Shown: positions 1,558 to 31,846 of the stretch, piece after piece | Layout of the letters: every line of letters starts with the position of its first letter | Position numbering within the stretch: the first letter of the stretch is position 1 | Assembly: GCA_902625895.1 (NCBI GenBank) | Contig: CACODD010000003.1 | Location: forward strand, 1 to 62,099 | Length of the DNA: 62,099 nucleotides | Direction: 5' to 3' | Source of the DNA: an uncultured Alphaproteobacteria bacterium | GTDB lineage: Bacteria > Pseudomonadota > Alphaproteobacteria > Methylaequorales > Methylaequoraceae | Notes under the pieces: generated by a model | Database searches by the model: none | Told to the model about the DNA's origin: nothing | What the model saw: only the letters and a program-made list of their open reading frames with translations | Made by a program: the position numbers and the translations under genes

Positions 1558-1637
1558 AGTTTCTAAACAATAGAGCTTTTAGCTAAATAAATTTCCTTTT
1601 AGGTCGTAAATATAATATTAACAGTGGTTCGTGGAAT

Positions 1638-4331: not shown

Positions 4332-4383
4332 GATGTTATATGTTTATTTTGAAGGTAAGAGAGTGATATTATAAAATAATATT

Positions 4384-5973: not shown

Positions 5974-5977
5974 AAAG

Positions 5978-7249: not shown

Positions 7250-7250
7250 A

Positions 7251-7550
7251 TTATTTTACAGAAGATTTGGAAATTGTTTCAGATTTGAAAATTACGCCGT
7301 TTTTTTGAGAATTGAGTTTTAAATGTTTGTAAAGCTCATCAAAAATAACATTTCCTTTTCTTTCTTTGACAATGAGAGTAAGAATGTCTGCTTCACTAGC
7401 ATCACCAAATTGCTGTATGTCAAACATATCTGTGGCTCTACCATTAGCATAACCGACTGAAATAACGTCTGAGTTTTCAGAAAACTTTTTAACAACTTTT
7501 TGTCCTAAACCTTTTTTTATTAAGCCACCAATTTCAACAAACTTTGACAT
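7251..7550 (-). CDS. Small hypothetical protein, possibly a second divergent PII-like partner
   Basis: 99-aa ORF 2 nt downstream of the PII-like gene. The C-terminal ILTLIV..GVIFKSE pattern loosely resembles the PII beta-alpha-beta fold. The functional call is weak. Confidence 0.45.
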   Translation of the reverse strand: MSKFVEIGGLIKKGLGQKVVKKFSENSDVISVGYANGRATDMFDIQQFGDASEADILTLIVKERKGNVIFDELYKHLKLNSQKNGVIFKSETISKSSVK

Positions 7551-7552
7551 AT

Positions 7553-7909
7553 TTATCCTCCAGCTCGTTTAATGACATCTTTAGGTATATATGTCGCAAC
7601 TCTGTCAAGTTTAACCATCCACATTATGCCTTTACCAGGTGTATCAAGATTTCCGGCTAAATACATTGATTCAAAGACTCTGTTCGATTGTTCTTTAGAA
7701 ACTATAATTCTTATTATTTCTTTTTGTTCATCTATAGTTACTCCAAGAAGTCCCATTCTATCCCTAATGCCTGTACCCCTGGCATAATTAATTGTTGCAC
7801 CTTGGGCTCCAACACTGGTGGCAGCATCTATGATTTTGTCGGCTAGACCACTTTCAACAACACAAGTGATTAAAAAAACGTCTGTTAAATAAGTGATATC
7901 TCTGGCCAT
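7553..7909 (-). CDS. PII-like (GlnB-fold) signal transduction protein
   Basis: 118 aa. The layout (FLITCVVESGLADKIIDAA..GAQGATI..ARG.G, ..IIRIIVS......VFESM...) matches PII-family proteins that accompany DUF1538 membrane proteins. Confidence 0.65.
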   Translation of the reverse strand: MARDITYLTDVFLITCVVESGLADKIIDAATSVGAQGATINYARGTGIRDRMGLLGVTIDEQKEIIRIIVSKEQSNRVFESMYLAGNLDTPGKGIMWMVKLDRVATYIPKDVIKRAGG

Positions 7910-7925
7910 AATTTTTTCCTTTTAG

Positions 7926-9623
7926 TTATTTTTTTTGTTTAAATTGTATATATAGTCCCATTAGGAGTACAGCAAGAATTGGACAAATACTTGCCATTGA
8001 TAGAATACCAAAACCTTCAGTGGCGGATACAGCATTTCCTAGACCCAGACCCATAGCCAGAACAAGTGGTACGGTTACCGGGCCGGTTGTGACTCCAGCG
8101 CTGTCCCAGGCGACATTAACAAATTCTTCAGTTGAAAAGTAAGTTAAAATAATTGCAAGAAGATAAAGTGGTATTAAAACGGTTGCTAAGTCAAAAGCAA
8201 ATACAATTTTTCCAACACCTAAGGCTATCCCAAATGCAACACCCCCGGCAACGCTATACATTAACATTGACTTTTTGAAAGCACCATTGGTAAGCTCTTG
8301 AACTGTCAAACCAAGGGCATTAAGTGCTGGCTCAGCAAGTGTTGCTCCAAATCCTAAGAGCCAAGCAAAAAGAATTACTATAGTTAAACCCAATAATTCG
8401 TTATAAATTGGTGATACTTCACTTATTGGGACTTCCATAAAGGCAGCAGGAAGATTGGTTCCAGCTTGTCCACCTATAGCTCCTAAACCATATGTGAGTC
8501 CTATATTGAAGACACACATCCCAACAATGGACAAAGTTAACCCATAAGTTGTTATCATGTTGTTAGGAAGTTTAGATCTAAGGATTATAAAAAGCACAAT
8601 CATTAAAAATATCACAAGTGGAAGTATCGCTCGAACTCCTCCAATAATTTCAACAAACGGGGTTTGTGACCATTTAGAAACCTCTCCTATGGTCATATCT
8701 GAAACCATACTAGTCGAAGCAATTATTTCCTCAACTGAGATTGTCTGAGAAACATGTATAGCGAGAATCAGAACAGCTATAATTGGAAATAATGAAGCCA
8801 TTGTAACGACGCCGAAACCAGAAAGAGATGAATCTCCTTTACCAGCTGATGCTGCAATTCCAATACCTAGTGATAGCACAAGAGGTACAGTAACTGGTCC
8901 AGTTGTAACAGCACCACAATCCCAAGCTAATCCGAGAATAGTTCTTAAATCAGGATTACTCCATACATATGCAGTAAGAATTATTGTTGGTGTAAGAGCT
9001 GCATAAATCATAGGTTTTAGAGACCAACCTTTGACAAACCTAATCGTTCCAATTATGGCTGCTAGTCCAACACCAGCACCGACCATTACAACTAAGGTTT
9101 CACTTCTATTATTTAGTATCTCATACAGATACGGTGCGTCCTGAGGGTTTATTGATGAACCAAATGCTTTGAGTGCTCCAATAGCTGGTTCCGCATAAGT
9201 TACCCCCACCCCAAGTATTCCAATAATAATTAAAACAAGAACCATTGGTGCTTTTTTTGGTAATGTATCACCAATTACATTGCCAAATGGCATTAAACCG
9301 GTTTTAAGACCTTCCATAAAAATTGCTAGGCCTATTATTACTGCAATTAATCCTAGACAAATTGTTGTCGCTGAAGAGATTGGTTGTCTTAAAATTAAAA
9401 GTTGAAACAGAAATAAATATGCTGCAAGTGGAACAACAGCTTTAATTTGTTCCATAACTCTAGAAATCGTGTAAGGTGCTAATAAAGTAAGTGCCTTGGC
9501 AGGTGATACTTTTATTTTCTGAGGCTTTAGTGATTTTCCTTTAGCTGCCTTCGGCGTAAGAAGGTTATAACTTAAAGATTTATGATTTATCTCTGATTCG
9601 TGAATGTAATCGGAATATTTCAT
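7926..9623 (-). CDS. Polytopic membrane protein with internal duplication (two DUF1538-like halves)
   Basis: The motif AWDCGAVTTGPVTVPLVLSLGIG recurs as AWDSAGVTTGPVTVPLVLAMGLG about 270 aa later. The protein has many TM segments. Confidence 0.7.
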   Translation of the reverse strand: MKYSDYIHESEINHKSLSYNLLTPKAAKGKSLKPQKIKVSPAKALTLLAPYTISRVMEQIKAVVPLAAYLFLFQLLILRQPISSATTICLGLIAVIIGLAIFMEGLKTGLMPFGNVIGDTLPKKAPMVLVLIIIGILGVGVTYAEPAIGALKAFGSSINPQDAPYLYEILNNRSETLVVMVGAGVGLAAIIGTIRFVKGWSLKPMIYAALTPTIILTAYVWSNPDLRTILGLAWDCGAVTTGPVTVPLVLSLGIGIAASAGKGDSSLSGFGVVTMASLFPIIAVLILAIHVSQTISVEEIIASTSMVSDMTIGEVSKWSQTPFVEIIGGVRAILPLVIFLMIVLFIILRSKLPNNMITTYGLTLSIVGMCVFNIGLTYGLGAIGGQAGTNLPAAFMEVPISEVSPIYNELLGLTIVILFAWLLGFGATLAEPALNALGLTVQELTNGAFKKSMLMYSVAGGVAFGIALGVGKIVFAFDLATVLIPLYLLAIILTYFSTEEFVNVAWDSAGVTTGPVTVPLVLAMGLGLGNAVSATEGFGILSMASICPILAVLLMGLYIQFKQKK

Positions 9624-9660
9624 AGTTTACCATAACATATTGTAGAAATTAATAAAATCT

Positions 9661-10128
9661 TTATTCAACATGACTTGTTGACCTCTCTAATCTGTAAAGA
9701 ATTTGTTTTGTTATTTTTTTTATTATTTGATTCTCTGACTCTATTATCTGATCTATTTCATCATGTGAATAAAGTACATTTTGAAACTCATTTCTTTTAG
9801 CAAGTTCTTTACATAAATTTAAAATTACCTTTTGGGCGGCCTTTGAACCAGAATTAATTAGCTCATCAAGATTTTCTTTACTAATAGATATTAACTCTGT
9901 AGATTGAGCTGATGTAATAGTTGCACTTCTGTTTTGTTTTAATATCAAAGCCATTTCACCAAAAACCTCTCCATCTCTCATAGATCCAACTTTTTTTCCG
10001 TCAACTAGTACATCAAGGACTCCAGAAACTATCATGTATGCTTTATCACCTTTGTCTCCTTGATTAAAAAGCGTCTCACCTTCTAACATCAAAATTTTTG
10101 TTGTTTTTCCATGACTAACTTCTTTCAA
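9661..10128 (-). CDS. Stand-alone cyclic-nucleotide-binding domain protein
   Basis: The phosphate-binding cassette FGEMALILKQNRSATITS is present. A short helical tail (QILYRLE) follows and there is no HTH. Confidence 0.8.
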   Translation of the reverse strand: MKEVSHGKTTKILMLEGETLFNQGDKGDKAYMIVSGVLDVLVDGKKVGSMRDGEVFGEMALILKQNRSATITSAQSTELISISKENLDELINSGSKAAQKVILNLCKELAKRNEFQNVLYSHDEIDQIIESENQIIKKITKQILYRLERSTSHVE

Positions 10129-10565
10129 GAAAATATCCTTTGAGATAATCTATAGTGAATCTGTAAAGCTAAAGCTCTTATTACGTTAGGAGAGTCCTTA
10201 GTTAGCTTTACAAGATCGGCTTTGGTAACTGGAAGTTTTTGGTTATCGGATTTTCCTAATTCCTTTGACATTTCATTAATTACTTTATGAAGATCTATGT
10301 TGGAGGATAATAAAATAGCTTCCAACGCCTTTCTTTTTATTTCAACGATTTCACTTGGTACAATAGCTTTTATACTCGCAGTTCTATTTTCATTAAGAAT
10401 TAAAGACAATTCTCCAAAGATTTCACCTGTTTCAATTTTCCCTATTTTTTTTCCTTCAATTTCTGCAACTAATCCACCTGAGACAACTAAAAAGGCTGTT
10501 TCTCCTTTATCTCCCTCTCGAACAATATATTGATCTGGAAGAACTCTTATCTTTTTTAAACTCAT
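10125..10565 (-). CDS. Stand-alone cyclic-nucleotide-binding domain protein (paralog of the next gene)
   Basis: FGELSLILNENRTASIKA cassette and a QIHYRLS tail. It overlaps the downstream paralog by 4 nt (ATGA). Confidence 0.8.
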   Translation of the reverse strand: MSLKKIRVLPDQYIVREGDKGETAFLVVSGGLVAEIEGKKIGKIETGEIFGELSLILNENRTASIKAIVPSEIVEIKRKALEAILLSSNIDLHKVINEMSKELGKSDNQKLPVTKADLVKLTKDSPNVIRALALQIHYRLSQRIFS

Positions 10566-10578
10566 TTAAACCTTTTTT

Positions 10579-12954
10579 TTATTTAGAAGTTGCAACAAAA
10601 ACACCATCCCAATCTTTTGGGGGAGGATGCTTTTTATATTCATTAATTCTTTCTGTCATCATTTCATAGTAATCTTTCATTAAACTTTTACAAAGTGTTT
10701 TTGCCTGAGTCATTTCCTCGATAGCATCTTTCCAATTTTGATTAAAATAGAGATTTAAAACATTTTTATGCTTTTTTTCAAGATTTTTGAAATCAACACT
10801 ATTTTTAAAACTTGGATCACCAAGCAAACAAAAAATTGATACAGCTTCTTTTTTTCCTTTTACTGCTAACATATCAAGTTGGAGCGTAGCATAAGTATCT
10901 TTAACAGCATCGTTTGTTTCTTGCCCAATAACTGTTTTAACTCCATAACCTTTTGATTGACCTTCAAGACGTGATGCTAGATTGACTGCGTCTCCCAATA
11001 CTGAATAGTCAAATCTTTGATCTGACCCCATATTTCCAACAACACAACCTCCAGTATTTAGTCCAATTCCAATTTTCAATTCCAAAAAATCTTTATTTTC
11101 TGACTTTGCTTCCTGTTCTCTTATATCGTTAAGTTCCTTAAGTGCTTTGTGCATGCTCAATGCTGCTTCACAAGAAACTTGCTCGTGTTTATCGACATCT
11201 ATAGGTGCATTCCAAAAAGCCATAATACAATCACCCATATATTTATCTATTGTTCCATTTTTATTTATGATTTCATTTGTAAGAGGAGTTAAAAATCTAT
11301 TTATAAGTTTTGTAAGGCCTTGAGGATCGGATTTAAAAGCTTCTGAAATTGTTGTAAAACCTCTTACATCACAAAAAAGAAATGTCATTTTTTTTGTTTC
11401 TCCACCCAACACTAATTTATCAGGATCTTCAGCTAATTGCTCTACTAAAGCAGGGGATAGATATTGAGAAAATGCACCCCTTATTTGTTTTTTCTCATTG
11501 GCATCTCGTAAGTAGTTTGCAAAGGTGTTACTAAAATAAATTACAAAAGTTGTTACACCTGCAAAGGTTGGATCAAATAAAGTTTTATGTTCAGTAAATA
11601 ACCTTACACTAATATAAAATGCAGAACTTATTATGGTTACAAGTAATGAAATATTTACAATTGGACCAAACCTTAATGCAGACACTGTAATAAATAATGC
11701 AAGCAAAATTGTAAAGAGTGCTTCATAAAATTTCATATTTGCACCAGATTTCAAAAAAGGTGATCCTGAAATTTTAACTTTGTTTTTTTCAATTATTGCT
11801 TCTTCTTCACTTAAACCTTTTTTTAATGCTTCTTTATAAACTTTTTCAGAATTTTTTGTAGATGTATAATAAAGAATTGCTGAAATGACTGTATCAATAA
11901 GATTTGCATGAATTTCAACACCTGGCATTCTTTCATCGACTGGAGTGGGTCTAATATCCTTTAATCCAGTGGCCGATGTGCCTAATATACCAAGTTTTCC
12001 TTGTAATCTATCTTTGCCAACCCTTCCTTTAATTATATCCACTGCACTTACATAATATCTTGATTTACCTTCTTTAACTTTTCCAGCATCTGAATCACCA
12101 TAATAAATCCACACTCTACCATTCTCATCAGTCGGAATAGCAGCATTACCAATAGCTTTAGTTTGAATTATTATTTCTTTAATTCCCGTCAAACCTGTCC
12201 TAGTGGCAATACTATTTCCTTGAAACGCAACCCTTATCATATCAAGTCCAAGAGTTGGTCTGATTTCACCTGCAACATTTGATATTAAGGGTACTCTTCT
12301 AATAATTCCATCTGGTTCCTGTGCAACTGAAACTGTACCAGATCCAGAGGCAGCTTTTTCAAACTCTGTCACATTAGCAAGTAATCCAGGATAAGATATC
12401 AACCATTCCTTTGGATTTTTACCTTTGCCAACAAAAACTTTTACAGATGAATCGTTTATATCATTTCTGTTTGCATCACCTTCTACATCCAAGCCAGAGT
12501 GCCCGATTACTACAGGAAAGTCACTCATAGCTTCAGTGGCTAAAAACTCATTAGAAGGAAGTTCACTTAATAATTTTGCAATAGTTGGATTTCGTTTTTC
12601 TAAATCTTGAGAAATTAAGTCAGGTGAAGTTCTGTCTTTTTCTGCAAAGAGAACATCTAGACCTAAAACAAGCATACCTGACTCTTTAGATTTTTTAAAA
12701 AGATCAGCAAGTACAGTTCTTGGCCATGGCCATTGACCGATTTCTCTTAGAGATTTTTCGTCAATATCTACAATTACGGAGTAAGTTTGACCGTCTGTAG
12801 ATCTTGGAAATTTTTTTTGAAGAACATCAAAATATTTAAGTCGTAGAACTTCTACTATTTCAGGATCAGCTATTCGAATCAAACCAAAAAGAATTGCCAT
12901 TACTAAAGAGGCAATAGTAACAATAAGTCTAAAACTTAGCTTTAATTTAATCAT
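10579..12954 (-). CDS. CHASE2-domain class III adenylate/guanylate cyclase (Lys/Asp pair suggests adenylate cyclase)
   Basis: N-terminal TM, a large periplasmic-type domain, then 3 TM segments. The catalytic domain reads FLFCDVRGFT..DKYMGDCIMAFWNAP..FDYSVLGDAVNLASRLE. Confidence 0.9.
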   Translation of the reverse strand: MIKLKLSFRLIVTIASLVMAILFGLIRIADPEIVEVLRLKYFDVLQKKFPRSTDGQTYSVIVDIDEKSLREIGQWPWPRTVLADLFKKSKESGMLVLGLDVLFAEKDRTSPDLISQDLEKRNPTIAKLLSELPSNEFLATEAMSDFPVVIGHSGLDVEGDANRNDINDSSVKVFVGKGKNPKEWLISYPGLLANVTEFEKAASGSGTVSVAQEPDGIIRRVPLISNVAGEIRPTLGLDMIRVAFQGNSIATRTGLTGIKEIIIQTKAIGNAAIPTDENGRVWIYYGDSDAGKVKEGKSRYYVSAVDIIKGRVGKDRLQGKLGILGTSATGLKDIRPTPVDERMPGVEIHANLIDTVISAILYYTSTKNSEKVYKEALKKGLSEEEAIIEKNKVKISGSPFLKSGANMKFYEALFTILLALFITVSALRFGPIVNISLLVTIISSAFYISVRLFTEHKTLFDPTFAGVTTFVIYFSNTFANYLRDANEKKQIRGAFSQYLSPALVEQLAEDPDKLVLGGETKKMTFLFCDVRGFTTISEAFKSDPQGLTKLINRFLTPLTNEIINKNGTIDKYMGDCIMAFWNAPIDVDKHEQVSCEAALSMHKALKELNDIREQEAKSENKDFLELKIGIGLNTGGCVVGNMGSDQRFDYSVLGDAVNLASRLEGQSKGYGVKTVIGQETNDAVKDTYATLQLDMLAVKGKKEAVSIFCLLGDPSFKNSVDFKNLEKKHKNVLNLYFNQNWKDAIEEMTQAKTLCKSLMKDYYEMMTERINEYKKHPPPKDWDGVFVATSK

Positions 12955-14675
12955 GGTTCTGCAAAACTATTACCAAGAGTTCTTATGAGTGGATAAATAA
13001 AATACGTAATTAATCTTCTTTGCCCAACTCTAAACTTTCCTGAAACTTTCATTCCTGGCATTAAATTAAATCCTGGAGGAATATCTTTTAACTCATTTTC
13101 TGTTATTTGAGCCCTAGCTCTATAAAAATTTCCAGGTTTTCCATCGACATCTTTATCAATTGTGTCAGCAGAAACATAAATAAGCTTTCCTTTTAATTCA
13201 CCATGTTTTTGTGCTGGAAGAGCATTAAGTTGAATTTTAACAGATGTATCCGGAATTAGTTTACTAATATCAGAAGGGTCAACATCAAAAACAGTTAATA
13301 ACTCCACACCTGTTGGTACCAATGTTACAACACTTTTACCTGGTGTTATTACTGCTCCAGGGTATAGAGAATGAAGGTCTAGAATCATTCCGTCAGAAGG
13401 CGCTCTGACCACGACATCAGTTTGTTGTCTTTCAAGTTTTTTAACATCCTCTTGTAGCGACATTCTTTGATCTTCTAACCCAACAAGCTCATCGTTTATT
13501 CCTCCAAAAAATTGGCTGTTATATTCTTTTCTATTAGATTTTAATTCGCTTAGTTTATTGCTAGTTTTTGTAAATTCTTTTTCTAAAGATAACCTTTTAT
13601 TTTTTTCAGCTAAAACTTGTGACTCTGCTACAAGATCAAGTTCAAACAACTCCAACTTTGAATCTTCCAGCTGTTTTTGTATATCAAGTTGTTCCTTGAT
13701 AAACTTTAAATCGTCTTCAGTGGAACCTATTTGTTGATCTAATGAAGCAATCTTTGCTAAATATTGGTCTTTTTTATCTTTAAAGATTCGACTTTGTCTT
13801 TCGTCATTTGGATTTGCAACCGAAACATTATTTCTTAACAATGACTGCTTTCTTAGTCTATCAATTTTTGAATTTACAACTGAAAGCTGATAATCAAGTT
13901 TCATTTTATCGGCTCTTTGTAGTGTAGCATCGAAAGTTACGAGTGGGTCTCCTTGATTTACACTCTCGCCTTTTTTTACAAGTATTTCTTTGACAACAGA
14001 ATTATAGTTTGATTGTACCTCTACATTTGGGACAACGGTGGTAATCTTTCCAGAAGCAGAAATTGTAGTGTCAATTTCCGAAATAGTGCCCCAAGTAATT
14101 AAAAATAAAATAAGGAAACCAAATGAATAGACTGACATTTTTACTGAACTTGGTACCTGCTTTGTTTTAATTCTATCAATGTCGTCATCAAATTCATCTA
14201 ATAATTCACTCATCATTTTTTTTTTTGATCTATTTTCTTTTTCTTCCTCAGTTAAAACTTCTTCTTGATCTTTGTTATTCTCATTTTCATTTCCAGATTC
14301 AAAAGCATCCACAGATAATTTTTCGTTTGCATTTCTGGCATAGCTTGCAAGTTGCTGCATCATATTGAAAGCTGTTTGTGGAGAGTTTTTGAGATATCCT
14401 AGTAAAGCATTTTGATCAATTTCTTTTACCGTTGTCTCAACTGTCGCTCTTGCCATTGCACTTCTTGGTTGTTTGTCAATTAATGCCATTTCTCCAAACA
14501 ACGCACCTTTTTCAAGTATTGACAGAGTTACGTATTCGTCACCGTTGAATTTGCATACCTCTATTTTCCCTTTTACTATTTGATAGGCATAGTCACCAAC
14601 TTCACCTTCTCTAAAAAGCACATCACCAGCAGCTAAATTTCTAACAGCGGGTTGAATATTTTTTTTTTCAGCCAT
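12951..14675 (-). CDS. HlyD-family T1SS adaptor with N-terminal cyclic-nucleotide-binding domain
   Basis: Residues 1-125 form a cNMP domain (FGEMALIDKQPRSAMARA). An acidic linker and a TM follow. The rest has HlyD features (GKITTVVPN, coiled coil, GMILDL..PGAVITPG, RRLITYFIYP). Confidence 0.85.
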   Translation of the reverse strand: MAEKKNIQPAVRNLAAGDVLFREGEVGDYAYQIVKGKIEVCKFNGDEYVTLSILEKGALFGEMALIDKQPRSAMARATVETTVKEIDQNALLGYLKNSPQTAFNMMQQLASYARNANEKLSVDAFESGNENENNKDQEEVLTEEEKENRSKKKMMSELLDEFDDDIDRIKTKQVPSSVKMSVYSFGFLILFLITWGTISEIDTTISASGKITTVVPNVEVQSNYNSVVKEILVKKGESVNQGDPLVTFDATLQRADKMKLDYQLSVVNSKIDRLRKQSLLRNNVSVANPNDERQSRIFKDKKDQYLAKIASLDQQIGSTEDDLKFIKEQLDIQKQLEDSKLELFELDLVAESQVLAEKNKRLSLEKEFTKTSNKLSELKSNRKEYNSQFFGGINDELVGLEDQRMSLQEDVKKLERQQTDVVVRAPSDGMILDLHSLYPGAVITPGKSVVTLVPTGVELLTVFDVDPSDISKLIPDTSVKIQLNALPAQKHGELKGKLIYVSADTIDKDVDGKPGNFYRARAQITENELKDIPPGFNLMPGMKVSGKFRVGQRRLITYFIYPLIRTLGNSFAEP

Positions 14676-14680
14676 TTAAA

Positions 14681-16852
14681 TTACCCGGCCTTTTTTAAAG
14701 ATTTAATTTTGTTTTCAACACCTAAAATAGACATTTGCTTATTATACGTCTTACCAAAATAGCCTGAGGTCTGTCTAAGTTCTTCAAAAGAACCTTGTTG
14801 AGATATTTTTCCTTTTTCAAGTACAAAGATTTTATTACAAAGTCGAAGGTGCCAAACTCTGTTTGACACGATAATAATCGTTCTACCAAGAGCAATATCT
14901 GATAATGCATCATATAATTTTATTTCACTATCAACGTCAAAACCTGTGAAAGCATCATCTAGTATCATGATACGAGGGTTTCTAATAAGTGCTCTAGCGA
15001 TTGCTAGTTTCTGTCTTAAACCAGTTGCTAGGTTTGTAGCGTTTTCTTCAAGAAATGTTTCATATCCATCGGGATAAGACTCTATTTCTTCATGCGCAAA
15101 AACTTTTTTGGCAGCCCACGTTATCCTGTCCATAGAAGAATTTGGCATTGCACTTGCTATTGTTTCTCTTATTGTTCCAGGAAAAAAATAACTATCTGTT
15201 CCGACCAATGAAACCTGTGATCTTACATGACTAAGGTCCAGTAAACGAAGATCTATATTATCAAGGGCTACGATGCCAGCTTGCGGTCTATACAAACCTT
15301 GAATCAGTTTTGCAATGGTACTTTTCCCACAGCCACTTTTACCAGTGATACCAATTATTTGTCTTGGATTAATTTCAATATCAACATCATTTAATACTTT
15401 TGTATTATCGTCGTAGCCGAACTCAACATTTTTAAAAGTAACCTGTCCCATTAGTTGAGGTTTTTGGCCCTTAACAGTTGTTTCGGAGTTTGCATCCACT
15501 ATTCCTGATATGATCTGAAGAGACTGAACTAATTTTGTTATTTCTGTTTTAAGAGTAACTAGATCAATTATTGGTTTTGAAACTCTGCCGGCTAGCATAT
15601 TAAAACCTACTAAAATTCCAGCTGAAAGAGAACCAGAAAATACAAGATGCACCCCAACAAAAATGACCATCGCTGTCATTAGTTGATTTATGGTTGATGA
15701 AATGTTGTTTAAAACTGCTGACTTTTTTTGCATTTCTTCATTTGCAATAATATAATTAGCTTCCAAATCTCTCCACTGATCTTTTAAATTAGGCTCAAGA
15801 GCAAGTCCCTTTACATTCTCAATTCCGTTAACAGCAACAGAAATAAATTCTTGTCTTTTTGATTCAGCCTTACTTAAACCAGCGAGTGAGTCTCTTTGTT
15901 TTTTCGAGTAAAACATTGATGCTAAAGCTCCTAAAATACTGAATGAAAACACAACAATAAATAGTAATGGACTATAAAAAAATAAAATTGGAACAAAAAC
16001 AAGTAAACTAATTGAGTCTAGTGCTGTTGAGAAAACTTTTTGAGTCAGAAGGCTTTTGATCTGAGATATTTGACCTGTGAATCTCAAAAAAGTTGCTGAT
16101 TCTTTGTGAAACCTTTGCATTGGTAAAGCAATTAATTTTTCAAAAACTTTAACTGAAAGTTTGGCTTCAACTTTTTGTGAGAAAAAATCAAGAAGATATG
16201 ATTTTAAATACCCAAGTATTCCATTAAATACATACGCAACAACTACACCTGAAGTTATAACATATAAAGTTGAATAAGCTTCATAGTTTACAACCTTATC
16301 CAAAACTAACATCATGAAAACAGCCGGTATAACTGCGAAAATGTTTAAAATCAAAGCTACGATTACAACTTGAACCATAACAGATTTGTTCCTAAATGAC
16401 TCGCCAATTAACCATCCAATTTTTAATTCGCTGTCTTCTTCGAATTTTTTCAGTTTAGCTTTAAGAAGTATTACTTCTCCGTTCCAGCCTTTTTTTAATT
16501 CTTTTAAATTAATTTGTTGAGGTTTAGGACTGGTAACACCAGTATCAAGGCATAAAACTGACTTATCATCATCTTTTTCACCTTGAATAACTCTTAAAGC
16601 TATTATGTATCTTCCATTTTTAAGTCTTAAGATTTGTTGTTTTTTAGATAAGAGCTTTACTAGTTCTTTATCGCTAATTTTGGTTGCTTTTGCTTTTAAA
16701 TCAAAGGATTGAGCTAGTTCACACATTTCAGTGGTTCTAAGCTCTCTATCTTCAATTTGAAATCTTTCTGGAATATCATTTGGACCAATATGAACCCCTA
16801 GTTGTCTTGCAACTAGAATAATTGATTTTTGAGAACCTCGCATCGCTTCCAT
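14681..16852 (-). CDS. HlyB-like T1SS ABC exporter with N-terminal C39-like domain (no catalytic Cys) and non-canonical NBD motifs
   Basis: The N-terminus aligns by eye with the HlyB CLD (GPNDIPERF, LKAKATKISDKEL, GRYIIALRV). Walker A is GKSGCGKST. The signature reads LATGL, Walker B reads ILDDA and the H-loop reads SNR. Confidence 0.9.
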   Translation of the reverse strand: MEAMRGSQKSIILVARQLGVHIGPNDIPERFQIEDRELRTTEMCELAQSFDLKAKATKISDKELVKLLSKKQQILRLKNGRYIIALRVIQGEKDDDKSVLCLDTGVTSPKPQQINLKELKKGWNGEVILLKAKLKKFEEDSELKIGWLIGESFRNKSVMVQVVIVALILNIFAVIPAVFMMLVLDKVVNYEAYSTLYVITSGVVVAYVFNGILGYLKSYLLDFFSQKVEAKLSVKVFEKLIALPMQRFHKESATFLRFTGQISQIKSLLTQKVFSTALDSISLLVFVPILFFYSPLLFIVVFSFSILGALASMFYSKKQRDSLAGLSKAESKRQEFISVAVNGIENVKGLALEPNLKDQWRDLEANYIIANEEMQKKSAVLNNISSTINQLMTAMVIFVGVHLVFSGSLSAGILVGFNMLAGRVSKPIIDLVTLKTEITKLVQSLQIISGIVDANSETTVKGQKPQLMGQVTFKNVEFGYDDNTKVLNDVDIEINPRQIIGITGKSGCGKSTIAKLIQGLYRPQAGIVALDNIDLRLLDLSHVRSQVSLVGTDSYFFPGTIRETIASAMPNSSMDRITWAAKKVFAHEEIESYPDGYETFLEENATNLATGLRQKLAIARALIRNPRIMILDDAFTGFDVDSEIKLYDALSDIALGRTIIIVSNRVWHLRLCNKIFVLEKGKISQQGSFEELRQTSGYFGKTYNKQMSILGVENKIKSLKKAG

Positions 16853-16884
16853 GAGGATATAATATATTAATTTTTAATTTAATC

Positions 16885-16917
16885 AAAAAAAAAACCCCCT
16901 TAGAAACTCTAAGAGGG
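16885..16917 (-). terminator. Rho-independent terminator between the P/G/M/D-rich gene and the ABC exporter gene
   Basis: Minus strand: CCCTCTTAG-AGTTT-CTAAGGGGG (9-bp stem with one G-U) followed by T10. Confidence 0.75.
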
Positions 16918-16941
16918 TTTTTTATCTATAGAAGTATAGGT

Positions 16942-18102
16942 TTAAACTACCTCACCACCGTCATTTGGGTCGTCTGGTGGCGGAGGTACATCGGCTGGCA
17001 TATCACCAGGCATTGGCCCAGGATCTCCAGGAGGAGGCCCTTCTGGACCTTGATGTGCTCCTGCATCGTCCATGTGAGTATGCATATCACCCATTCCATC
17101 TGGAGGAGGCATATCACCTGGACCACCAGGTCCGCCATCCATTGGCCCTGGTTGACCCATCGGATCACCTGGAGGCATATCACCTGGTGGCGGTCCACCA
17201 GCTGGCCCACCTTCACCAAATAATGGATCTGGCCCTTCACCACCAGGAGGTGGCGGAGGCATTCCGTCTCCATCCATATCCATGCCTGGAGGTGGTCCGT
17301 CAGGTCCCATTGTCCCTGGTCCCATATCAGGAGGAGGAGTTCCTGGTCCGAATTCTGGTCCACCTGCCATATCACCTGGAGGAGGTCCATCTGGTCCTGG
17401 CCCAAAACCGCCCTCTGGATTAGGTGGTTCTCCCATAGGAGGTCCCATTGGTTCTCCATCTGGTCCAAAAGCTGGCCCATCTGGTTGAGGTCCGCCTGCC
17501 ATATCACCTGGAGGAGGTCCGTCTGGTCCCATTCCGCCTGGTCCCATATCACCTGGAGGAGGTCCGTCTGGTCCCATTCCACCTGGTCCCATCTCACCTG
17601 GAGGAGGTCCATCTGGTCCCATTCCAGCTGGTCCCATATCAGTCATTGGTCCTGGTTCCCATGCACCTGGCATAGCACCAGGATCGAATTCTGGTCCACC
17701 TGGAAAATCACCATAAGGTGGTGCTCCATCCATCATTGGACCAAAATCCTCTGGTGGTGGAGGGAAATCGCCTGCCATGTCCATACAAGGCATATCACCG
17801 GGAAACTCTGCCATATGAAAATCTAACGCACCGCCAACAGCATCAAATGCATCCATTGGAGGTGAATCAGGATTTGCTGCCATATGAGCATCAAAAGCAC
17901 CCTGTGCAACGTCTGCGATATTATCCATCATTTCTTTTGGCATACCAGCATCCGCCATAAAATTCATTGCTGCTCCCATACCTTCTCCGAAGGCTGCACT
18001 AGGGTCAGCAGCGAAGTCAGCCGCTTGAAATGGACCCATAGCTGCATCGCCAGCGGCTTCAGCAAAAGCTTCCATTTCAGGTGGCAAAACAAATTCTGCC
18101 AT
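16942..18102 (-). CDS. Pro/Gly/Met/Asp-rich low-complexity protein (no signal peptide, no RTX repeats); possible T1SS cargo
   Basis: 386-aa ORF with AAGGA 8 nt upstream of the ATG. The N-terminal about 110 aa are non-repetitive. The rest is built from GPDGPPPGDMGPGGM-type repeats. A terminator follows immediately. Confidence 0.75.
   Translation of the reverse strand: MAEFVLPPEMEAFAEAAGDAAMGPFQAADFAADPSAAFGEGMGAAMNFMADAGMPKEMMDNIADVAQGAFDAHMAANPDSPPMDAFDAVGGALDFHMAEFPGDMPCMDMAGDFPPPPEDFGPMMDGAPPYGDFPGGPEFDPGAMPGAWEPGPMTDMGPAGMGPDGPPPGEMGPGGMGPDGPPPGDMGPGGMGPDGPPPGDMAGGPQPDGPAFGPDGEPMGPPMGEPPNPEGGFGPGPDGPPPGDMAGGPEFGPGTPPPDMGPGTMGPDGPPPGMDMDGDGMPPPPPGGEGPDPLFGEGGPAGGPPPGDMPPGDPMGQPGPMDGGPGGPGDMPPPDGMGDMHTHMDDAGAHQGPEGPPPGDPGPMPGDMPADVPPPPDDPNDGGEVV
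17495..17641 (-). repeat. About three tandem 45-bp units encoding GGMGPDGPPPGDMGP
   Basis: Units at 17495-17539, 17540-17584 and 17585-17629 are near-identical. A partial fourth follows, and dispersed copies occur elsewhere in the ORF. Confidence 0.85.
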
Positions 18103-18215
18103 AATAAATTCCTTTATTAAATTGTAAGATTAAATTGTGTTAATACTTTAAAAAGTCGATACAGTCTAGTTTAACAATATTTTATTTTTTTATTTTAAGC
18201 AAGCTTTAATTAATT

Positions 18216-19541
18216 TTACTTTTCAATTGTTTCGAAATTGAGAATTCCGCATAGTTTTAATAATTCGAAGGATGAAATAATAAGTTGATATTGTGCGTTC
18301 ACTAAATTTGATTCAGAATTTGTTAGTTCTTTTTGTGCATCTAAAATTTCTAATGTTGTTCTGGTACCAACACTTGCTTCTTTAGTTACTCCCTCAACTG
18401 CCATTAAATTTGACTCAACCGAAACCTCAAGAGAATCTATACTTGATTTTGAACTTTCTATTTTCTTCCATGCCGAATTAATTTGAAATTGTAAGTCAAG
18501 TTTTTTTGTCTCAATTGATTTAATGACGGTGAGAGCAGAATCTTTGGATTTTTCTAAATTCAAAAAATTATGTCCTTTGTTAAATAATGGAACTGTAACA
18601 TTTGCAGTTACTGAGAATGAATCTGTTCTTTCAACCGTTCTTGAGGAATCAAGTGATTTTCCTACTGAACCAGACAAAGAAAATTCTGGTGCAAAATTTA
18701 AATTATTTTTTCTTACATCCAATTTTGAGTTCATAAGTTGTAATTTTAATTTTCTATAATCTGGGTTCTTTTCTAAGCCTGTTTTTATTGAATCGTCCAA
18801 AGATTTTGGAAGTTTTGGTATTTGACCAAATTTTAACCAATCTTTTGGATTGGCGTCGACAATTTGGGCATTATTGGAATCAAACCATTTAATATCCGGA
18901 TCTCTTCCGACAATTGTTTTAAAATCAGAAATTGAAATTTCTAAGTTATTTTCAGCCTCTATTCTCTTTGAAGTAGCACCTGCTAATCTTGCTTTAGCCT
19001 GAAAAACGTCAGTTTTAGTAACATCTTTAAATTCGAATCGCTTTTCTGCAGCATTTAGTTTTTTTTCAAGAGTTTCTTCGTTCCTTTTTGAAACATCTAA
19101 AAGAAAATAATCCTTTAGAACAGTATAATAGGCTTTACTAGCTTTAAATAAAACATCTTGGACTGTTGCGTAAAAGGTTAACTTTGCGATGTTCACGTTA
19201 TTTTTAGCTTGCTTGAAATTTATAGCCTTTGTGTAACCTAAAGGTTGAGATAAATCTAAGTCGAACGTAGTTGGGTTGATAGCGCTATCATTAATTCGAG
19301 ATGTATCAGGGTTGCTTTTTGAAATTTTCCTTCCTTGTGATGCAGATAAATCAAGAGATGGTAGAAAATCTGTTTTTGAAATTTTTAAATCTTTTTCTGA
19401 AATTTTCAGTTCTGTTTTACTTTTTTCAATGTCGGGATAAAACTTATATGCATCTTTTAAAACATCGGAGAGTTCTTCAGAAATTGAAATAATAGGAAAA
19501 AATATTGATGCTAAGATAGCCAGATTAAGTTTGGATTTCAC
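18216..19541 (-). CDS. tolC: TolC-family outer membrane efflux/secretion protein
   Basis: Signal peptide, two-repeat architecture, typical N-terminal L.D.L..AY..YPDI and LPSLDLSAS motifs, 441 aa. Confidence 0.85.
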   Translation of the reverse strand: MKSKLNLAILASIFFPIISISEELSDVLKDAYKFYPDIEKSKTELKISEKDLKISKTDFLPSLDLSASQGRKISKSNPDTSRINDSAINPTTFDLDLSQPLGYTKAINFKQAKNNVNIAKLTFYATVQDVLFKASKAYYTVLKDYFLLDVSKRNEETLEKKLNAAEKRFEFKDVTKTDVFQAKARLAGATSKRIEAENNLEISISDFKTIVGRDPDIKWFDSNNAQIVDANPKDWLKFGQIPKLPKSLDDSIKTGLEKNPDYRKLKLQLMNSKLDVRKNNLNFAPEFSLSGSVGKSLDSSRTVERTDSFSVTANVTVPLFNKGHNFLNLEKSKDSALTVIKSIETKKLDLQFQINSAWKKIESSKSSIDSLEVSVESNLMAVEGVTKEASVGTRTTLEILDAQKELTNSESNLVNAQYQLIISSFELLKLCGILNFETIEK

Positions 19542-27966: not shown

Positions 27967-28539
27967 ATGTGTGGCAGATACGTACTTTATTCAAAAGAGA
28001 AATTTAAAAATAAATATAATATAAATATAAGCCCAAATTATAACATTTCGCCTAATCAAAAAGTGTTTGTAATTGATCAAAACATGAATATTATGAAACT
28101 AAAGTGGGGTATTAGAGCGGAATGGAACAGTTCCTTAATTATTAACGCAAGATCGGAAACAATTGATATCAAAAAATCTTTTGTTAGCCTAAATAGATGT
28201 GTTTTTATAAGTGATGGTTATTATGAGTGGAAGAGAAGTGGAAAACTAAAGACTCCGTTTTATCATTATGTTCCAAATAGTTTTTTGTATTTTGCTGGCC
28301 TTTGCAATAACGTAGGTTGTGTTGTCGTTACCATGGATAGTTTTCAATACCTTTCAACGGTTCATAGAAGGCAGCCATTTTTTTTAAAAGAAAATCAAAT
28401 TGATTCATGGATTAAAAATGATAGAAGTAGTATTATGTTTGATGATGTAATAAATTATCATCAAGTATCAACTGAAGTTAATAAAATATGGTGTAACTCG
28501 AACGATTTGATAAATGAAATCGAAGATAAAGCTCAATAA
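27967..28539 (+). CDS. SOS-response-associated peptidase (SRAP/YedK family, abasic-site processing)
   Basis: It starts with MCGRY (catalytic Cys2). The motifs NISPNYNISPNQ, NARSET and YYEW are present. Confidence 0.85.
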   Translation: MCGRYVLYSKEKFKNKYNINISPNYNISPNQKVFVIDQNMNIMKLKWGIRAEWNSSLIINARSETIDIKKSFVSLNRCVFISDGYYEWKRSGKLKTPFYHYVPNSFLYFAGLCNNVGCVVVTMDSFQYLSTVHRRQPFFLKENQIDSWIKNDRSSIMFDDVINYHQVSTEVNKIWCNSNDLINEIEDKAQ

Positions 28540-28565
28540 TAACATATACTTACTAAATATATCTA

Positions 28566-29036
28566 ATGCTTAAGGTCATAAAAATAATTTTTATCACGCT
28601 TTGCATAAACTTTCTAGTGCATGTTGAACTTCAAAGTAGACCTGTTGGTAAAGGCTTATCGTGTTTTCCTGAAAAAAATTCGATCAATAATAATTATGAA
28701 TCATTTCGTGGATTATATTTCGAATCAGACAATTCAATTAGAGTAGTAAGTTTCAAAAGTAAAAATAAATCTCTTAAAATTATTTCAAAACTTACTCCTT
28801 ATAAAATTTCTGAGAATTCTGTAAAATTTAAAATAAAGTTTATTTGGTATGGGAATATTTCTTTTGAAGAATTTACTTTGGGAAGAAGAGACCTTGAACT
28901 AAATCATGAAATAAATAATAAAAACAGGATTTTGAAGTGTAAAATTCTAGATGGGGAGTTTATGCCAGAAATGATAGAGCTAAAGAATTTCTTTCAATTG
29001 AAATTCGATGATGGTTTAAAATCAAATAAAATATAA
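28566..29036 (+). CDS. Small secreted hypothetical protein (paralog of 24990-25424)
   Basis: Signal peptide plus the motifs shared with ORF 24990 (listed under that feature). Confidence 0.6.
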   Translation: MLKVIKIIFITLCINFLVHVELQSRPVGKGLSCFPEKNSINNNYESFRGLYFESDNSIRVVSFKSKNKSLKIISKLTPYKISENSVKFKIKFIWYGNISFEEFTLGRRDLELNHEINNKNRILKCKILDGEFMPEMIELKNFFQLKFDDGLKSNKI

Positions 29037-29066
29037 AAAAAAAGCCTGACTTAATTAAGTCAGGCT
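29035..29066 (-). terminator. Rho-independent terminator for the PqqA-like gene (palindrome agcctgacttaattaagtcaggct plus T9 on the minus strand)
   Basis: 24-nt perfect palindrome at 29043-29066, flanked by the A9 run at 29035-43, which reads as a T-run on the minus strand. Confidence 0.7.
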
Positions 29067-29094
29067 CATTAAATACATGAAAATCTTTAACTAT

Positions 29095-29172
29095 TTACTT
29101 TTCAGCGCAAGCGTAAGAATTGATTTCAAGTCCTACTGAGATTTCAGAAATAGTTGGTTTTGTCCAAGCCAT
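29095..29172 (-). CDS. pqqA: PqqA-like coenzyme PQQ precursor peptide (25 aa; not in ORF track)
   Basis: The reverse complement translates to MAWTKPTISEISVGLEINSYACAEK. It has W.KP and the Glu-x3-Tyr pair (EINSY). AGGAG lies 6 nt upstream and a terminator lies directly downstream. Confidence 0.75.
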   Translation of the reverse strand: MAWTKPTISEISVGLEINSYACAEK

Positions 29173-29324
29173 TGTATACTCCTTTTATATTAATATTAAT
29201 AATTGTTTACAATATATTAGTTTAATCTTAATTAACTCTGATAAGCTTGTTCATAATTGGTTAATATTGAAAAGTCTCGAAAATATAGTTTTGTTGGTGT
29301 TTTGTTTATGACAATTAATGGAAT

Positions 29325-29356
29325 AATAAAGAGAATGAAGTATCATTCTCTTTATT
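29325..29356 (-). terminator. Perfect 14-bp hairpin (aataaagagaatga / tcattctctttatt) just downstream of ORF 29365-29607
   Basis: Read directly from the sequence. The loop is agta and there is no clear T-run. Confidence 0.45.
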
Positions 29357-29364
29357 ACTGCAGA

Positions 29365-29607
29365 TTAGTTGTTTAGAAGTGCAAGAGCTCTGTCAAAGAT
29401 CTCTTCAGCGTTATCAAGCTCACCAATTTCTAACTTTTCAACTGCTTGAGATCTGAGACTAGATATCTTTGCAAAAGTTTCTGTGTTGATTGAACTTTTA
29501 TCTGAAAATAACTTTGAATCAACTTCAGCCATTTTTTGATAAGGACAAGCTTCAGCACTTGTTGAAATGACAAAAGCAGCAGCTAAGCATAAAATAATTT
29601 TTTTCAT
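29365..29607 (-). CDS. Small secreted helical protein, hypothetical
   Basis: 80 aa with the signal peptide MKKIILCLAAAFVISTSAEA. Confidence 0.55.
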   Translation of the reverse strand: MKKIILCLAAAFVISTSAEACPYQKMAEVDSKLFSDKSSINTETFAKISSLRSQAVEKLEIGELDNAEEIFDRALALLNN

Positions 29608-29808
29608 AGTTAATCCTTTGTTAAGTATTTAAGATAGTATGTAAAATTTTTTTTTCTATCATTATTTTTTTAAGTTGTATTTTAATGTAAACTCAAACAC
29701 TGCAAATTGTTTTTTTTAACTTTTTACTCATAAATTAGCTAAAAACATTTTTTTTTAAATTCTTTTGTAAATAAGTAAAATCTAAAAAATTAAAAAGGTA
29801 TAAATTTA

Positions 29809-30645
29809 ATGGAATTCACTGGAAGTAAAAATTATATTTCGACGAACGATTTAACTATCGCCGTAAATGCCTCAATTGCACTGGAAAAACCATTATTGGT
29901 TAAAGGAGAACCAGGTACTGGTAAGACCGAGTTAGCAAGACAGATTGCTAGTAGTTTAAAATTAAAAATAATTGAATGGAGCATAAAGTCCACAACCAAG
30001 GCACAGCAAGGCTTATATGAGTACGATGCTGTCAGTAGATTAAGAGACAGTCAGCTTGGAGAAGAAATAAAAGACATTTCTAAGTATATTAAAAAAGGTA
30101 AAATATGGGAATCTTTTGAAACAACAAAAAAATCAGTTCTTTTAATTGATGAAATAGACAAAGCTGATATTGAGTTTCCCAATGATTTACTTCAAGAATT
30201 GGATAAAATGGAGTTTTACATATACGAAACTGGTGAAGTTGTTAAAGCTAATCATAGACCGATAATAATCATAACATCCAATAATGAAAAAGAACTTCCT
30301 GAGGCGTTTTTAAGGAGATGTTTTTTCCACTATATTCAATTCCCTGAAATTAACACACTCAGAAAGATTGTTGAAGTTCATTTTCCAGACATAAAAAAAT
30401 CATTATTAGAAACGGCACTTAAAAAATTTTTTCAGATAAGAGAAGTTCCAGGATTAAAAAAGAAACCATCTACATCAGAGGCTCTCGATTGGATAAAACT
30501 TTTATTAGTAGAAGATTTGGACTCAAAAGATTTGAAATCAGACGGAAAAAACATTTTACCAAAGCTTCATGGGGCATTGCTAAAAAATGAACAAGATATT
30601 CAACTTTTTGAACAATTAGCGTTTATGTCAAGAAGAGAAGATTAA
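29809..30645 (+). CDS. MoxR-like AAA+ ATPase (AAA_5 / CoxD-like)
   Basis: Walker A GEPGTGKT and Walker B LLIDEIDKA. The size of about 280 aa is typical. It is paired with a VWA gene. Confidence 0.85.
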   Translation: MEFTGSKNYISTNDLTIAVNASIALEKPLLVKGEPGTGKTELARQIASSLKLKIIEWSIKSTTKAQQGLYEYDAVSRLRDSQLGEEIKDISKYIKKGKIWESFETTKKSVLLIDEIDKADIEFPNDLLQELDKMEFYIYETGEVVKANHRPIIIITSNNEKELPEAFLRRCFFHYIQFPEINTLRKIVEVHFPDIKKSLLETALKKFFQIREVPGLKKKPSTSEALDWIKLLLVEDLDSKDLKSDGKNILPKLHGALLKNEQDIQLFEQLAFMSRRED

Positions 30646-30649
30646 GTTT

Positions 30650-31846
30650 ATGTTTTTAGATTTTTTCTTTAAATTAAAAAATGCCAAAATACCTGTATCG
30701 CTAAATGAATTTTTAAATCTTCTCAATGCTTTAGATAATCAGATAATTTCATATGACGTAAATGCATTTTATTTTTTGGCAAGAACTTGTTTAATAAAAG
30801 ACGAAAAACTTTTTGATAAGTTTGACTTGGTTTTTGGTGAATATTTCAAGTCAATTGAAAGAATTGAATTAGAAGATGTGATGTCATCCATGGATATCCC
30901 TGATGATTGGATTAAACAAATGTTTAACAGATATTTCACTGAAGACGAAATTAACAAAATCAAATCTCAAGGTGGTATTGAAAAACTTTTAAAAACTTTA
31001 AAACAAAGATTAAAAGATCAAAAAAAAAGACATCATGGCGGAAATAAATGGATTGGAACCTCTGGAACTTCTCCATTCGGAGCATATGGATATAATCCTG
31101 AGGGCATAAGAATGGGCCAAGATAAAAGACGTCATGGTAAGGCAATAAAAGTTTGGGATAAAAGGATTTTTAAAGATTTTGATAATACCAAGGAATTTAA
31201 TAATAGAAGTTTTAAAGTAGCTTTAAAGAAACTAAGACAATGGGCTAGAACTGGAATTAACCAGGAGTTGGATATTGAGGAAACAATATCAGATACTGCA
31301 AAAAATGGGGTTTTGAACATTAAAACTAAAAGAGAAAGAGAAAATTCAATTAAAGTTTTATTGTTCTTAGATGTTGGTGGGTCCATGGACAGTCACATTG
31401 AGCAAGTTGAACAACTTTTTTCAGCTGCTAGTAATGTATTTAAAAATCTTCATTATTTTTATTTCCATAACTGCTTATACGAGGGTATTTGGAAAAATAA
31501 TAATAGAAGATGGAATGAAAGGTTACTAACTTATGATGTTATAAGGACTTATGGAAAAGAGTTTAAATGTATTTTTGTTGGAGATGCAACTATGAGTCCA
31601 TACGAAATTGTGATTCCAGGCGGTGGTAATGAACATTTTAATGATGAACCGGGAAGAATCTGGTTGGAAAGAGCTATTACCCAATGGCCGTCATATATAT
31701 GGATAAATCCTGTTGTCGAAAAATACTGGGAGTATTCAGAATCCACAATGATAATAAAAGATATCTTTCAAAATCGGATGGTACCGTTAACGTTAGAAGG
31801 GATTGATAAAGCAACGAAAATCCTGGCACAACCAAATTTTAATTGA
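30650..31846 (+). CDS. VWA-domain protein (CoxE-like partner of the MoxR ATPase)
   Basis: It starts 4 nt after the ATPase stop. LLFLDVGGSMDS is a MIDAS-type DxSxS motif. The size is about 400 aa. Confidence 0.8.
   Translation: MFLDFFFKLKNAKIPVSLNEFLNLLNALDNQIISYDVNAFYFLARTCLIKDEKLFDKFDLVFGEYFKSIERIELEDVMSSMDIPDDWIKQMFNRYFTEDEINKIKSQGGIEKLLKTLKQRLKDQKKRHHGGNKWIGTSGTSPFGAYGYNPEGIRMGQDKRRHGKAIKVWDKRIFKDFDNTKEFNNRSFKVALKKLRQWARTGINQELDIEETISDTAKNGVLNIKTKRERENSIKVLLFLDVGGSMDSHIEQVEQLFSAASNVFKNLHYFYFHNCLYEGIWKNNNRRWNERLLTYDVIRTYGKEFKCIFVGDATMSPYEIVIPGGGNEHFNDEPGRIWLERAITQWPSYIWINPVVEKYWEYSESTMIIKDIFQNRMVPLTLEGIDKATKILAQPNFN

Follow-up and report, generated by a model that had tools for sequence, protein, structure and literature searches.

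An unlinked pqqA gene copy with its own upstream element and terminator in an uncultured low-GC alphaproteobacterium

Positions 29095-29172 of a 62,099-nucleotide stretch of DNA from an uncultured alphaproteobacterium (the window, meaning the whole stretch that was analysed) very probably hold an extra pqqA, the gene of the PQQ precursor peptide, as a functional copy transcribed on its own, with the PQQ enzymes encoded elsewhere in the genome. Judged from its sequence and conservation, the reading frame is a real, strongly conserved pqqA gene. Methylotrophs are already known to have unlinked and multi-copy pqqA genes, and the present gene is another instance; we found no description in the literature of multi-copy pqqA in this marine lineage. 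The finding leaves existing knowledge of how PQQ is made unchanged; what it contributes is a further lineage, of marine alphaproteobacteria with streamlined genomes, in which the PQQ precursor gene and not the enzymes has been multiplied.

Results and discussion

The pqqA gene and its family membership

The initial annotation had described a minus-strand reading frame of 25 codons with the hallmarks of PqqA, and the frame was found exactly as described.

29095-29172, minus strand: pqqA coding sequence, 25 codons plus TAA, encoding MAWTKPTISEISVGLEINSYACAEK (from the sequence and the ORF list)

The start codon ATG lies at 29172-29170 and the stop codon TAA at 29097-29095. The length, the W-x-K-P motif and the cross-link residues E16 and Y20, located within GLEINSY, are all present, and with 25 residues and a Glu-x-x-x-Tyr pair the peptide belongs to PqqA as the family is defined (about 20-30 residues with such a pair). 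When we scored the peptide with the Pfam and TIGRFAM models of PqqA, it passed both, reaching 33.5 bits with Pfam PF08042 (curated cut-off, the gathering score, 21.1) and 39.4 bits with the NCBIfam equivalog model TIGR02107 (cut-off 20). According to the TIGRFAMs authors, all detectable PqqA homologs are apparently PQQ precursors (PMC3531188). A degenerate DNA pattern of the PqqA core, W-x-K-P-x3-[DE]-x3-G-x-E-[IV]-[TN]-x-Y, matched the window once and matched none of 100 shuffles of the window. The 63-aa ORF on the opposite strand (29120-29311, plus), which had been called spurious, does exist and is not conserved, the same frame being closed after 31-37 codons in relatives.

Conservation in related genomes

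Relatives were collected with the DNA pattern for ...GLEIN[SC]YACA, one genome per species, which gave at least 119 loci. The low-GC loci (25-36% GC) belong to uncultured marine alphaproteobacteria, including GORG single-cell genomes (AG-...), the "Rickettsiales bacterium" MAGs MED657, MED652 and SP101, and "Pelagibacteraceae bacterium" TMED13, and the peptide is almost invariant among them (MAWTKP[M/T/I]ISEISVGLEINSYACAEK). In seven genomes the 8-kb blocks match the gene order of the window, with a DNA identity of 82-92%, so the nearest relatives are different species; the proteins of these blocks are mostly 80-98% identical to those of the window, with lower values for some small ORFs. Collinearity extends at lower identity to three more genomes, and in the more distant syntenic loci the neighbouring proteins fall to 46-85% identity. 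All ten syntenic loci encode the identical peptide with T7 at the same position, and every difference in the coding sequence across them is synonymous.

The same tendency is seen in the 76 copies of the 25-codon type, in which 49 distinct coding sequences encode seven peptides. Measured against the window, 402 nucleotide differences are synonymous and the amino acid is altered in 68 codons, position 7 accounting for 62 of these. Invariance is partly by construction at W3, K5, P6, E10 and G14-A23, which were set by the scan pattern, and the free positions (2, 4, 7-9, 11-13, 24 and 25) are nearly invariant too, except position 7. The gene is under purifying selection.

A second low-GC marine lineage, mostly deposited as 'Rhodospirillaceae', was also observed (L133, L154, L201, L212 and L140, from AG-919-A04, AG-896-G13, AG-422-C09, AG-919-G06 and a 'Pelagibacterales' MAG). 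It has a different peptide, MWKKPEIREVAVGLEINCYACAEL, and a single operon-linked copy among the matches listed, without the 28-nt upstream element described in the next section.

The cassette and its signals

The gene is accompanied by signals for translation, termination and, as a candidate, transcription initiation.

29179-29184, minus strand: Shine-Dalgarno sequence AAGGAG, with AGGAG at 29183-29179, 6 nt before the ATG
29035-29067, minus strand: intrinsic terminator, an 11-bp stem with a 4-nt loop (29067-29042), then a T-run to 29035
29227-29265, minus strand: conserved upstream element, with the core ATGAAC-N7-TCAG-N7-TAAG at 29254-29227 and the repeat ATTAAC at 29265-29260
29214-29219, minus strand: candidate -10 hexamer TAATAT, weak and inferred, 17 nt downstream of ATCAGA (29242-29237)
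29026-29272, minus strand: whole pqqA cassette of about 245 bp, from upstream element to terminator, common to unlinked copies

Both of the signals that had been reported from the sequence beforehand, AGGAG at 6 nt upstream and a hairpin with T9 after the stop codon, were located, the former with exact spacing and the latter with its 11-bp stem and nine T at 29067-29035. The Shine-Dalgarno sequence is kept as (A)AGGAG or TAGGAG with the same spacing in all syntenic loci and in most paralogous copies. The terminator, in which nine T follow the stem, was the sole such site in a terminator scan of 28500-29900. Its hairpin folds with -18.6 kcal/mol (z-score -4.0 versus shuffles) and is retained when 14 divergent copies are aligned, 5/12 pairs having changed in a compensatory way.

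These signals also bear on the question of whether the frame could be a chance open frame or a decaying pseudogene. It has only 25 codons, and ORF lists with a minimum of tens of codons omit it; however, the core pattern is absent from all 100 shuffles, both HMM scores exceed their cut-offs, the changes across species are solely synonymous, the Shine-Dalgarno sequence is conserved and the terminator covaries, and we give this explanation almost no credence. The 25-codon pqqA is thus omitted by lists with a length threshold, yet it is real and under strong selection, and annotation that applies the PqqA models should include it.

The region upstream of the gene reads ATTAAC-N5-ATGAAC-N6-ATCAGA-N4-ATTAAG in the window, with ATTAAC 11 bp upstream of the core, which gives four AT(N)A(A/G)N repeats with a phasing of about 11 bp. 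The core matches the window once, at an expectation by chance of 0.00. In the related low-GC genomes, the 28-nt form RTGAAY-N7-TCAG-N7-TAAK is found exactly upstream of 68 of the 79 pqqA copies, and most copies without the exact element have near-matches (for example, TCAT for TCAG). The 606 kb of related loci contain 67 matches, which is roughly the number of pqqA copies, and the element is almost confined there to sites before pqqA. From the start of the element to the ATG, the distance is 72-84 nt in nearly all unlinked copies and 93-98 nt in operon-linked copies.

We regard the upstream element as a candidate activator site plus promoter. The repeats would bind an activator of the OmpR/PhoB kind, which would stand in for a poor -35. 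At the candidate -10, 'aTAta' positions are conserved in the consensus of 74 copies. A generic sigma-70 scan gave no convincing promoter that was rightly placed, and one nearby match overlaps the start codon.

When paralogous loci were aligned with the window by blastn, unlinked copies aligned only over about 29026-29272, which indicates that the shared unit is the cassette of about 245 bp, and operon-linked copies aligned only over about 29085-29201. The operon-linked copies have a GC-rich hairpin before pqqB, mostly without a long T-run. Since the same upstream element precedes operon-linked and unlinked copies, one regulon is indicated, and the spare cassette is probably co-regulated with the other copies. 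The shared element gives a concrete starting point from which to trace the regulator of PQQ synthesis in this uncultured group.

Surroundings of the gene in the window

The window has about 30% GC and carries three tRNA genes and no rRNA; an Rfam scan of it gave nothing beyond the three tRNAs. It contains one pqqA copy. Neither pqqBCDE nor quinoprotein genes were found in the 62-kb window, and Pfam scans of about 60 window ORFs detected no PqqC or PqqC-like, PqqD, radical-SAM/SPASM or PQQ-propeller proteins. These scans agree with the initial annotation, which had noted the absence of pqqB/C/D/E and of a PQQ-dependent dehydrogenase from the window. An MBL-fold protein at 53114-53956 was considered as PqqB and rejected, as it scored 27.8 bits against the TIGR02108 cut-off of 245; it sits after tmk-holB-metG-tatD, a housekeeping cluster.

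The neighbours of pqqA are a SRAP peptidase and a convergent 156-aa ORF without assigned function. The next gene upstream, an 80-aa ORF (29365-29607) on the same strand, has a signal-peptide-like N-terminus and a hairpin of its own.

29325-29356, minus strand: AT-rich hairpin after the 80-aa ORF, separating that gene (29365-29607) from the pqqA unit

Close relatives also have this hairpin, L172 with an A-T pair replaced by G-C as the one compensatory change, and it probably ends the transcript of the 80-aa gene just ahead of the pqqA cassette. The 80-aa secreted protein was rejected as a partner of pqqA, having its own hairpin and no family match and being absent beside other copies.

Further upstream and divergent are genes for an AAA ATPase and a VWA partner (29809-31846, plus). 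The AAA protein (29809-30645) was considered as an MxaR/MoxR-type maturation ATPase of methanol dehydrogenase and rejected, with 19.4 bits against a bpMoxR cut-off of 27; it has generic AAA and AAA_5 matches only, with no NCBIfam model above its cut-off. Pfam scans found no mxa or xox genes in the window, and an MxaR-like system linked to pqqA has no support besides the conserved adjacency. The AAA ATPase (278 aa) and the VWA/CoxE-like protein (398 aa) adjoin pqqA in L144, L239, L207, L122 and L129 as well, and this adjacency persists in distant members of the lineage, in which the VWA protein is only 63-70% identical. It may be plain synteny.

Positions 1-19541 of the window encode two type I secretion sets (ABC transporter, HlyD-like protein and TolC-like OEP) with an 897-aa RTX/FecR-domain protein alongside. 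The same cluster encodes a CHASE2 adenylate/guanylate cyclase, and cyclic-nucleotide-binding domains are present in three of its proteins, one being an HlyD fusion. Two ORFs in this region (91-1557 and 16942-18102) have no Pfam match and lie in 2-kb stretches of 43-44% GC, compared with about 30% for the genome.

The PQQ pathway and pqqA copy number in relatives

The pathway genes were searched for in relatives by tblastn with PqqB, C, D and E of the Caenispirillum salinarum locus L136. Among the matches listed, 29 low-GC loci have pqq genes immediately after a further copy of pqqA, which is usually of the M7 variant. At least six genomes have both a window-syntenic copy and a pqqA with pqq genes on another contig; in most of the six these are pqqBCDE, and pqqBCD or pqqB alone is seen where the 8-kb slice ends.

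AG-891-J16: operon-linked copy L161, window-syntenic copy L184
AG-892-F10: operon-linked copy L182, window-syntenic copy L174
AG-903-D15: operon-linked copy L170, window-syntenic copy L188
AG-911-L17: operon-linked copy L176, window-syntenic copy L129
AG-404-M02: operon-linked copy L177, window-syntenic copy L122
AG-895-B20: operon-linked copy L146, window-syntenic copy L197

An orphan copy with the pathway elsewhere had been one of the two readings offered at the outset, and these six syntenic relatives support it. By analogy with them, pqqBCDE would be present elsewhere in this particular genome. Three of the closest genomes (CM1_5m.P40, AG-908-P05 and AG-359-F09) showed no operon-linked copy among the matches listed.

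The operon and its neighbours were examined in detail in one relative, AG-404-M02 (L177). Against the NCBIfam equivalog cut-offs (in brackets), its proteins scored 388 (245) bits for PqqB, 345 (240) for PqqC, 82 (46) for PqqD and 576 (381) for PqqE. On the opposite strand just past pqqE (L177:4433-7946, minus) are genes for a MoxJ-like binding protein (240 bits, cut-off 212), a cytochrome c of the methanol-metabolism type (below the model cut-off) and a PQQ dehydrogenase of the methanol/ethanol family (666 bits, cut-off 480) with the sequence DEWDYDG, which includes a DYD motif. The extra Asp of the DYD motif marks lanthanide-dependent XoxF-type enzymes. The dehydrogenase is of the xoxF type, and lanthanide dependence is probable from this motif.

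The relatives often have several pqqA copies. At least four were found in AG-903-D15, AG-915-O07, LRMED-289 and SD3109 bin 358, at least three in AG-908-P05, AG-359-F09, AG-911-L17, CM1_5m.P40, MED657, LRMED-288, AG-907-I19, AG-892-K07, AG-896-A16 and AG-337-E20, and at least two in eleven further genomes. Among the matches listed, pqq genes lie beside one copy in 19 of the 25 low-GC genomes with at least two copies, and beside only one copy per genome. The arrangement of methylotrophs, with several pqqA copies, a single pqqBCDE and a PQQ dehydrogenase, is thus found in relatives.

These counts also bear on a loss of pqqBCDE from this genome, by which pqqA would be a leftover or a peptide without a processing enzyme of its own. 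Streamlined marine genomes do shed pathways, and pqqBCDE was not seen in the 62-kb window. However, the cassette is intact, from the upstream element through the Shine-Dalgarno sequence to the terminator, relatives have exactly the same peptide, and the 19 of 25 multi-copy low-GC genomes with pqq genes beside one copy (among the matches listed) argue for a retained pathway; we consider such a loss very unlikely.

Another explanation is that the unlinked PqqA peptides have a role outside PQQ synthesis, for example as another modified peptide, a signal or a metal-binding peptide, and have only their ancestry in common with the operon copy. In its favour, pqqA lies at least 25 kb from any pqq gene, the locus-specific T7 variant is kept across species, most other copies being M7, and the authors of PMC11317620 speculate on PqqA in an alternative lanthanide uptake system. 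The window peptide differs from the operon-linked copy in one leader residue, T7 versus M7; however, this sole difference is at a freely varying leader position, and the operon-linked copy itself has T7 in TMED13, SP101 and MED652. In addition, Pfam scans found no other maturase nearby, and the upstream element common to operon-linked and unlinked copies points to one regulon. We therefore hold a separate role to be very unlikely and retain an extra PQQ precursor gene as the preferred reading.

Proposed mechanism

If the gene at 29095-29172 is an extra pqqA copy, its transcription, its translation, the processing of its product by distant enzymes and its role in dosage could proceed as follows. 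A short monocistronic mRNA would start downstream of the conserved upstream element and end at the intrinsic terminator, and the strong Shine-Dalgarno sequence would lead to translation of the 25-aa peptide. PqqD would bind the N-terminal part of the peptide, the radical-SAM enzyme PqqE would cross-link Glu16 and Tyr20, and after proteolysis PqqB and PqqC would complete PQQ. The cofactor would then be used by a periplasmic alcohol dehydrogenase of the xoxF type, which is probably lanthanide-dependent. Since one PqqA is consumed for each PQQ, several co-regulated gene copies would increase the supply of substrate. The multiplied pqqA fits the view that PqqA, consumed one-for-one, can limit cofactor supply.

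Comparison with known systems

Several of these features have precedents. In Methylophilaceae, a single pqqBCDE set goes with 3-12 copies of pqqA (PMC4109929), and Methylovorus sp. MP688 has five copies, with the supply of PqqA being rate-determining according to work cited in PMC11317620. The lineage studied here resembles them in having dispersed pqqA copies, a single enzyme set and xoxF, presumably in an organism that oxidises methanol or other alcohols, and it is from these systems that the idea of precursor supply limiting PQQ comes (PMC4109929; for MP688, as reported in the work cited in PMC11317620). In contrast to the present organism, they are betaproteobacterial and their peptide is of another type, MWTKP..(F/L)G(F/L)EVT.Y. 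We found no description in the literature of the 28-nt upstream element for Methylophilaceae or MP688 genomes.

A second precedent is Methylorubrum extorquens AM1, in which the orphans pqqA2 and pqqA3 are under separate regulation and react to how much lanthanide is available (PMC11317620). Like the lineage studied here, AM1 is an alphaproteobacterium with unlinked pqqA copies in addition to a pqqA-containing operon. However, AM1 is a high-GC methylotroph of soil and plants with a large genome, whereas the genome here has about 30% GC, its lineage's peptides are near-identical, and one upstream element is common to all copies including the operon copy.

Compared with the canonical pqqABCDE operons of Klebsiella pneumoniae and Caenispirillum salinarum (L136), the window gene has the same length class, W-x-K-P leader and E-x3-Y core, passes the same HMMs and likewise has a hairpin after the stop codon. 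Unlike the operon-linked genes, it is not followed by pqqB, and its hairpin is a full terminator with a T-run.

With respect to the identity of the lineage, a 2025 study described an uncultured alphaproteobacterial "Clade X", formerly placed under Rickettsiales, which has the most highly expressed xoxF5 in ocean metatranscriptomes (PMC11996626). The lineage studied here fits this description and might be "Clade X".

Copies of pqqA in phages

The peptide gene is also widespread on viral contigs. Scans of IMG/VR with the general PqqA pattern and with the window-type pattern gave at least 120 contigs each, all with 29-44% GC. On these contigs (L001-L120 and L240 onwards; for example, L007, L013, L032 and L002) pqqA stands alone, and no pqqBCDE was found beside it among the contigs listed. 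Among the matches listed of the general scan, the commonest peptide is a 23-residue type and the other is the window type, ...EISVGLEINSYACAEK; the leader of the phage peptides varies, and none is identical to the chromosomal peptide among the matches listed. In three contigs with the window type, the neighbours identified by PHROGs are T7-like phage modules, namely primase/helicase, DNA polymerase, ribonucleotide reductase, portal, major head protein and holin. The possibility that the viral contigs were misfiled host fragments was rejected, as they have no synteny with the window. A tblastn search of cultured phage genomes with MAWTKPTISEISVGLEINSYACAEK gave no significant match.

The host-type upstream element is present in 0/120 of the phage pqqA copies listed. 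Eleven copies have a conserved small bulged hairpin of their own upstream, with covariation from CTG/CAG to CCG/CGG, in which the element AGTGGACTGCGGTC...GACAACCAGCACT lies 25-50 nt before the phage Shine-Dalgarno sequence.

Phage-type upstream hairpin: L084, L013, L017, L057, L038, L007, L099, L116, L103 and L009, and the genome locus L121

No Rfam family corresponds to this hairpin, and the chromosomal copies lack it.

Phage-borne pqqA has one precedent, in Lake Baikal viruses of Methylophilaceae (PMC7678222). As in those viruses, the phage contigs here carry the precursor gene without the enzymes, which was read there as a boost of host PQQ (PMC7678222). The window copy differs from the Lake Baikal phage pqqA in being chromosomal and syntenic across species and in having the host-type upstream element.

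These phage copies raise the question of whether the window copy is itself cargo of a phage or another mobile element and not a host gene. The same class of pqqA occurs on more than 120 viral contigs, and the 21-29 kb around the window copy is AT-rich, has many small domainless ORFs and starts beside a tRNA-Arg gene. However, the locus is syntenic across at least 10 species, the window copy has the host-type element that none of the 120 listed phage copies has, and no phage peptide is identical to the host peptide among the matches listed. In addition, the window proteins gave only unrelated weak matches with the phage loci, and no phage structural or integrase genes or attachment-site repeats were seen bounding the cassette. 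Mobile cargo is therefore highly improbable, and a host-encoded extra copy of pqqA remains our reading.

That so many phage contigs carry pqqA suggests that the supply of PQQ is important in infection; these copies and the shared operator are parts worth following. A broader picture can be drawn only tentatively, and we would sooner doubt it than rely on it. In this picture, the marine low-GC lineage, abundant and perhaps "Clade X", might control its PQQ supply mainly via the precursor, with 3-4 cassettes of about 245 bp per genome on a private 28-nt operator, whose repeats phased at 11 bp would suggest a dedicated response regulator. Phages of such hosts might repeatedly have acquired the same peptide gene, which would keep PQQ-dependent and probably lanthanide-dependent alcohol oxidation running in infection.

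Three of the loci are worth describing individually. The viral contig L116, which carries pqqA, ends beside an alphaproteobacterial two-piece (permuted) tmRNA gene (L116:5906-6194, minus), and this position suggests a phage integrated in an alphaproteobacterial host. A phage-type pqqA is also present in L214, from a 'Yeosuana sp.' MAG, and in L121, from a 'Maricaulis sp.' MAG. The peptide of L214 equals that of the viral contig L002, and L121 has the phage-type upstream hairpin; both are probably phage contigs binned into unrelated MAGs.
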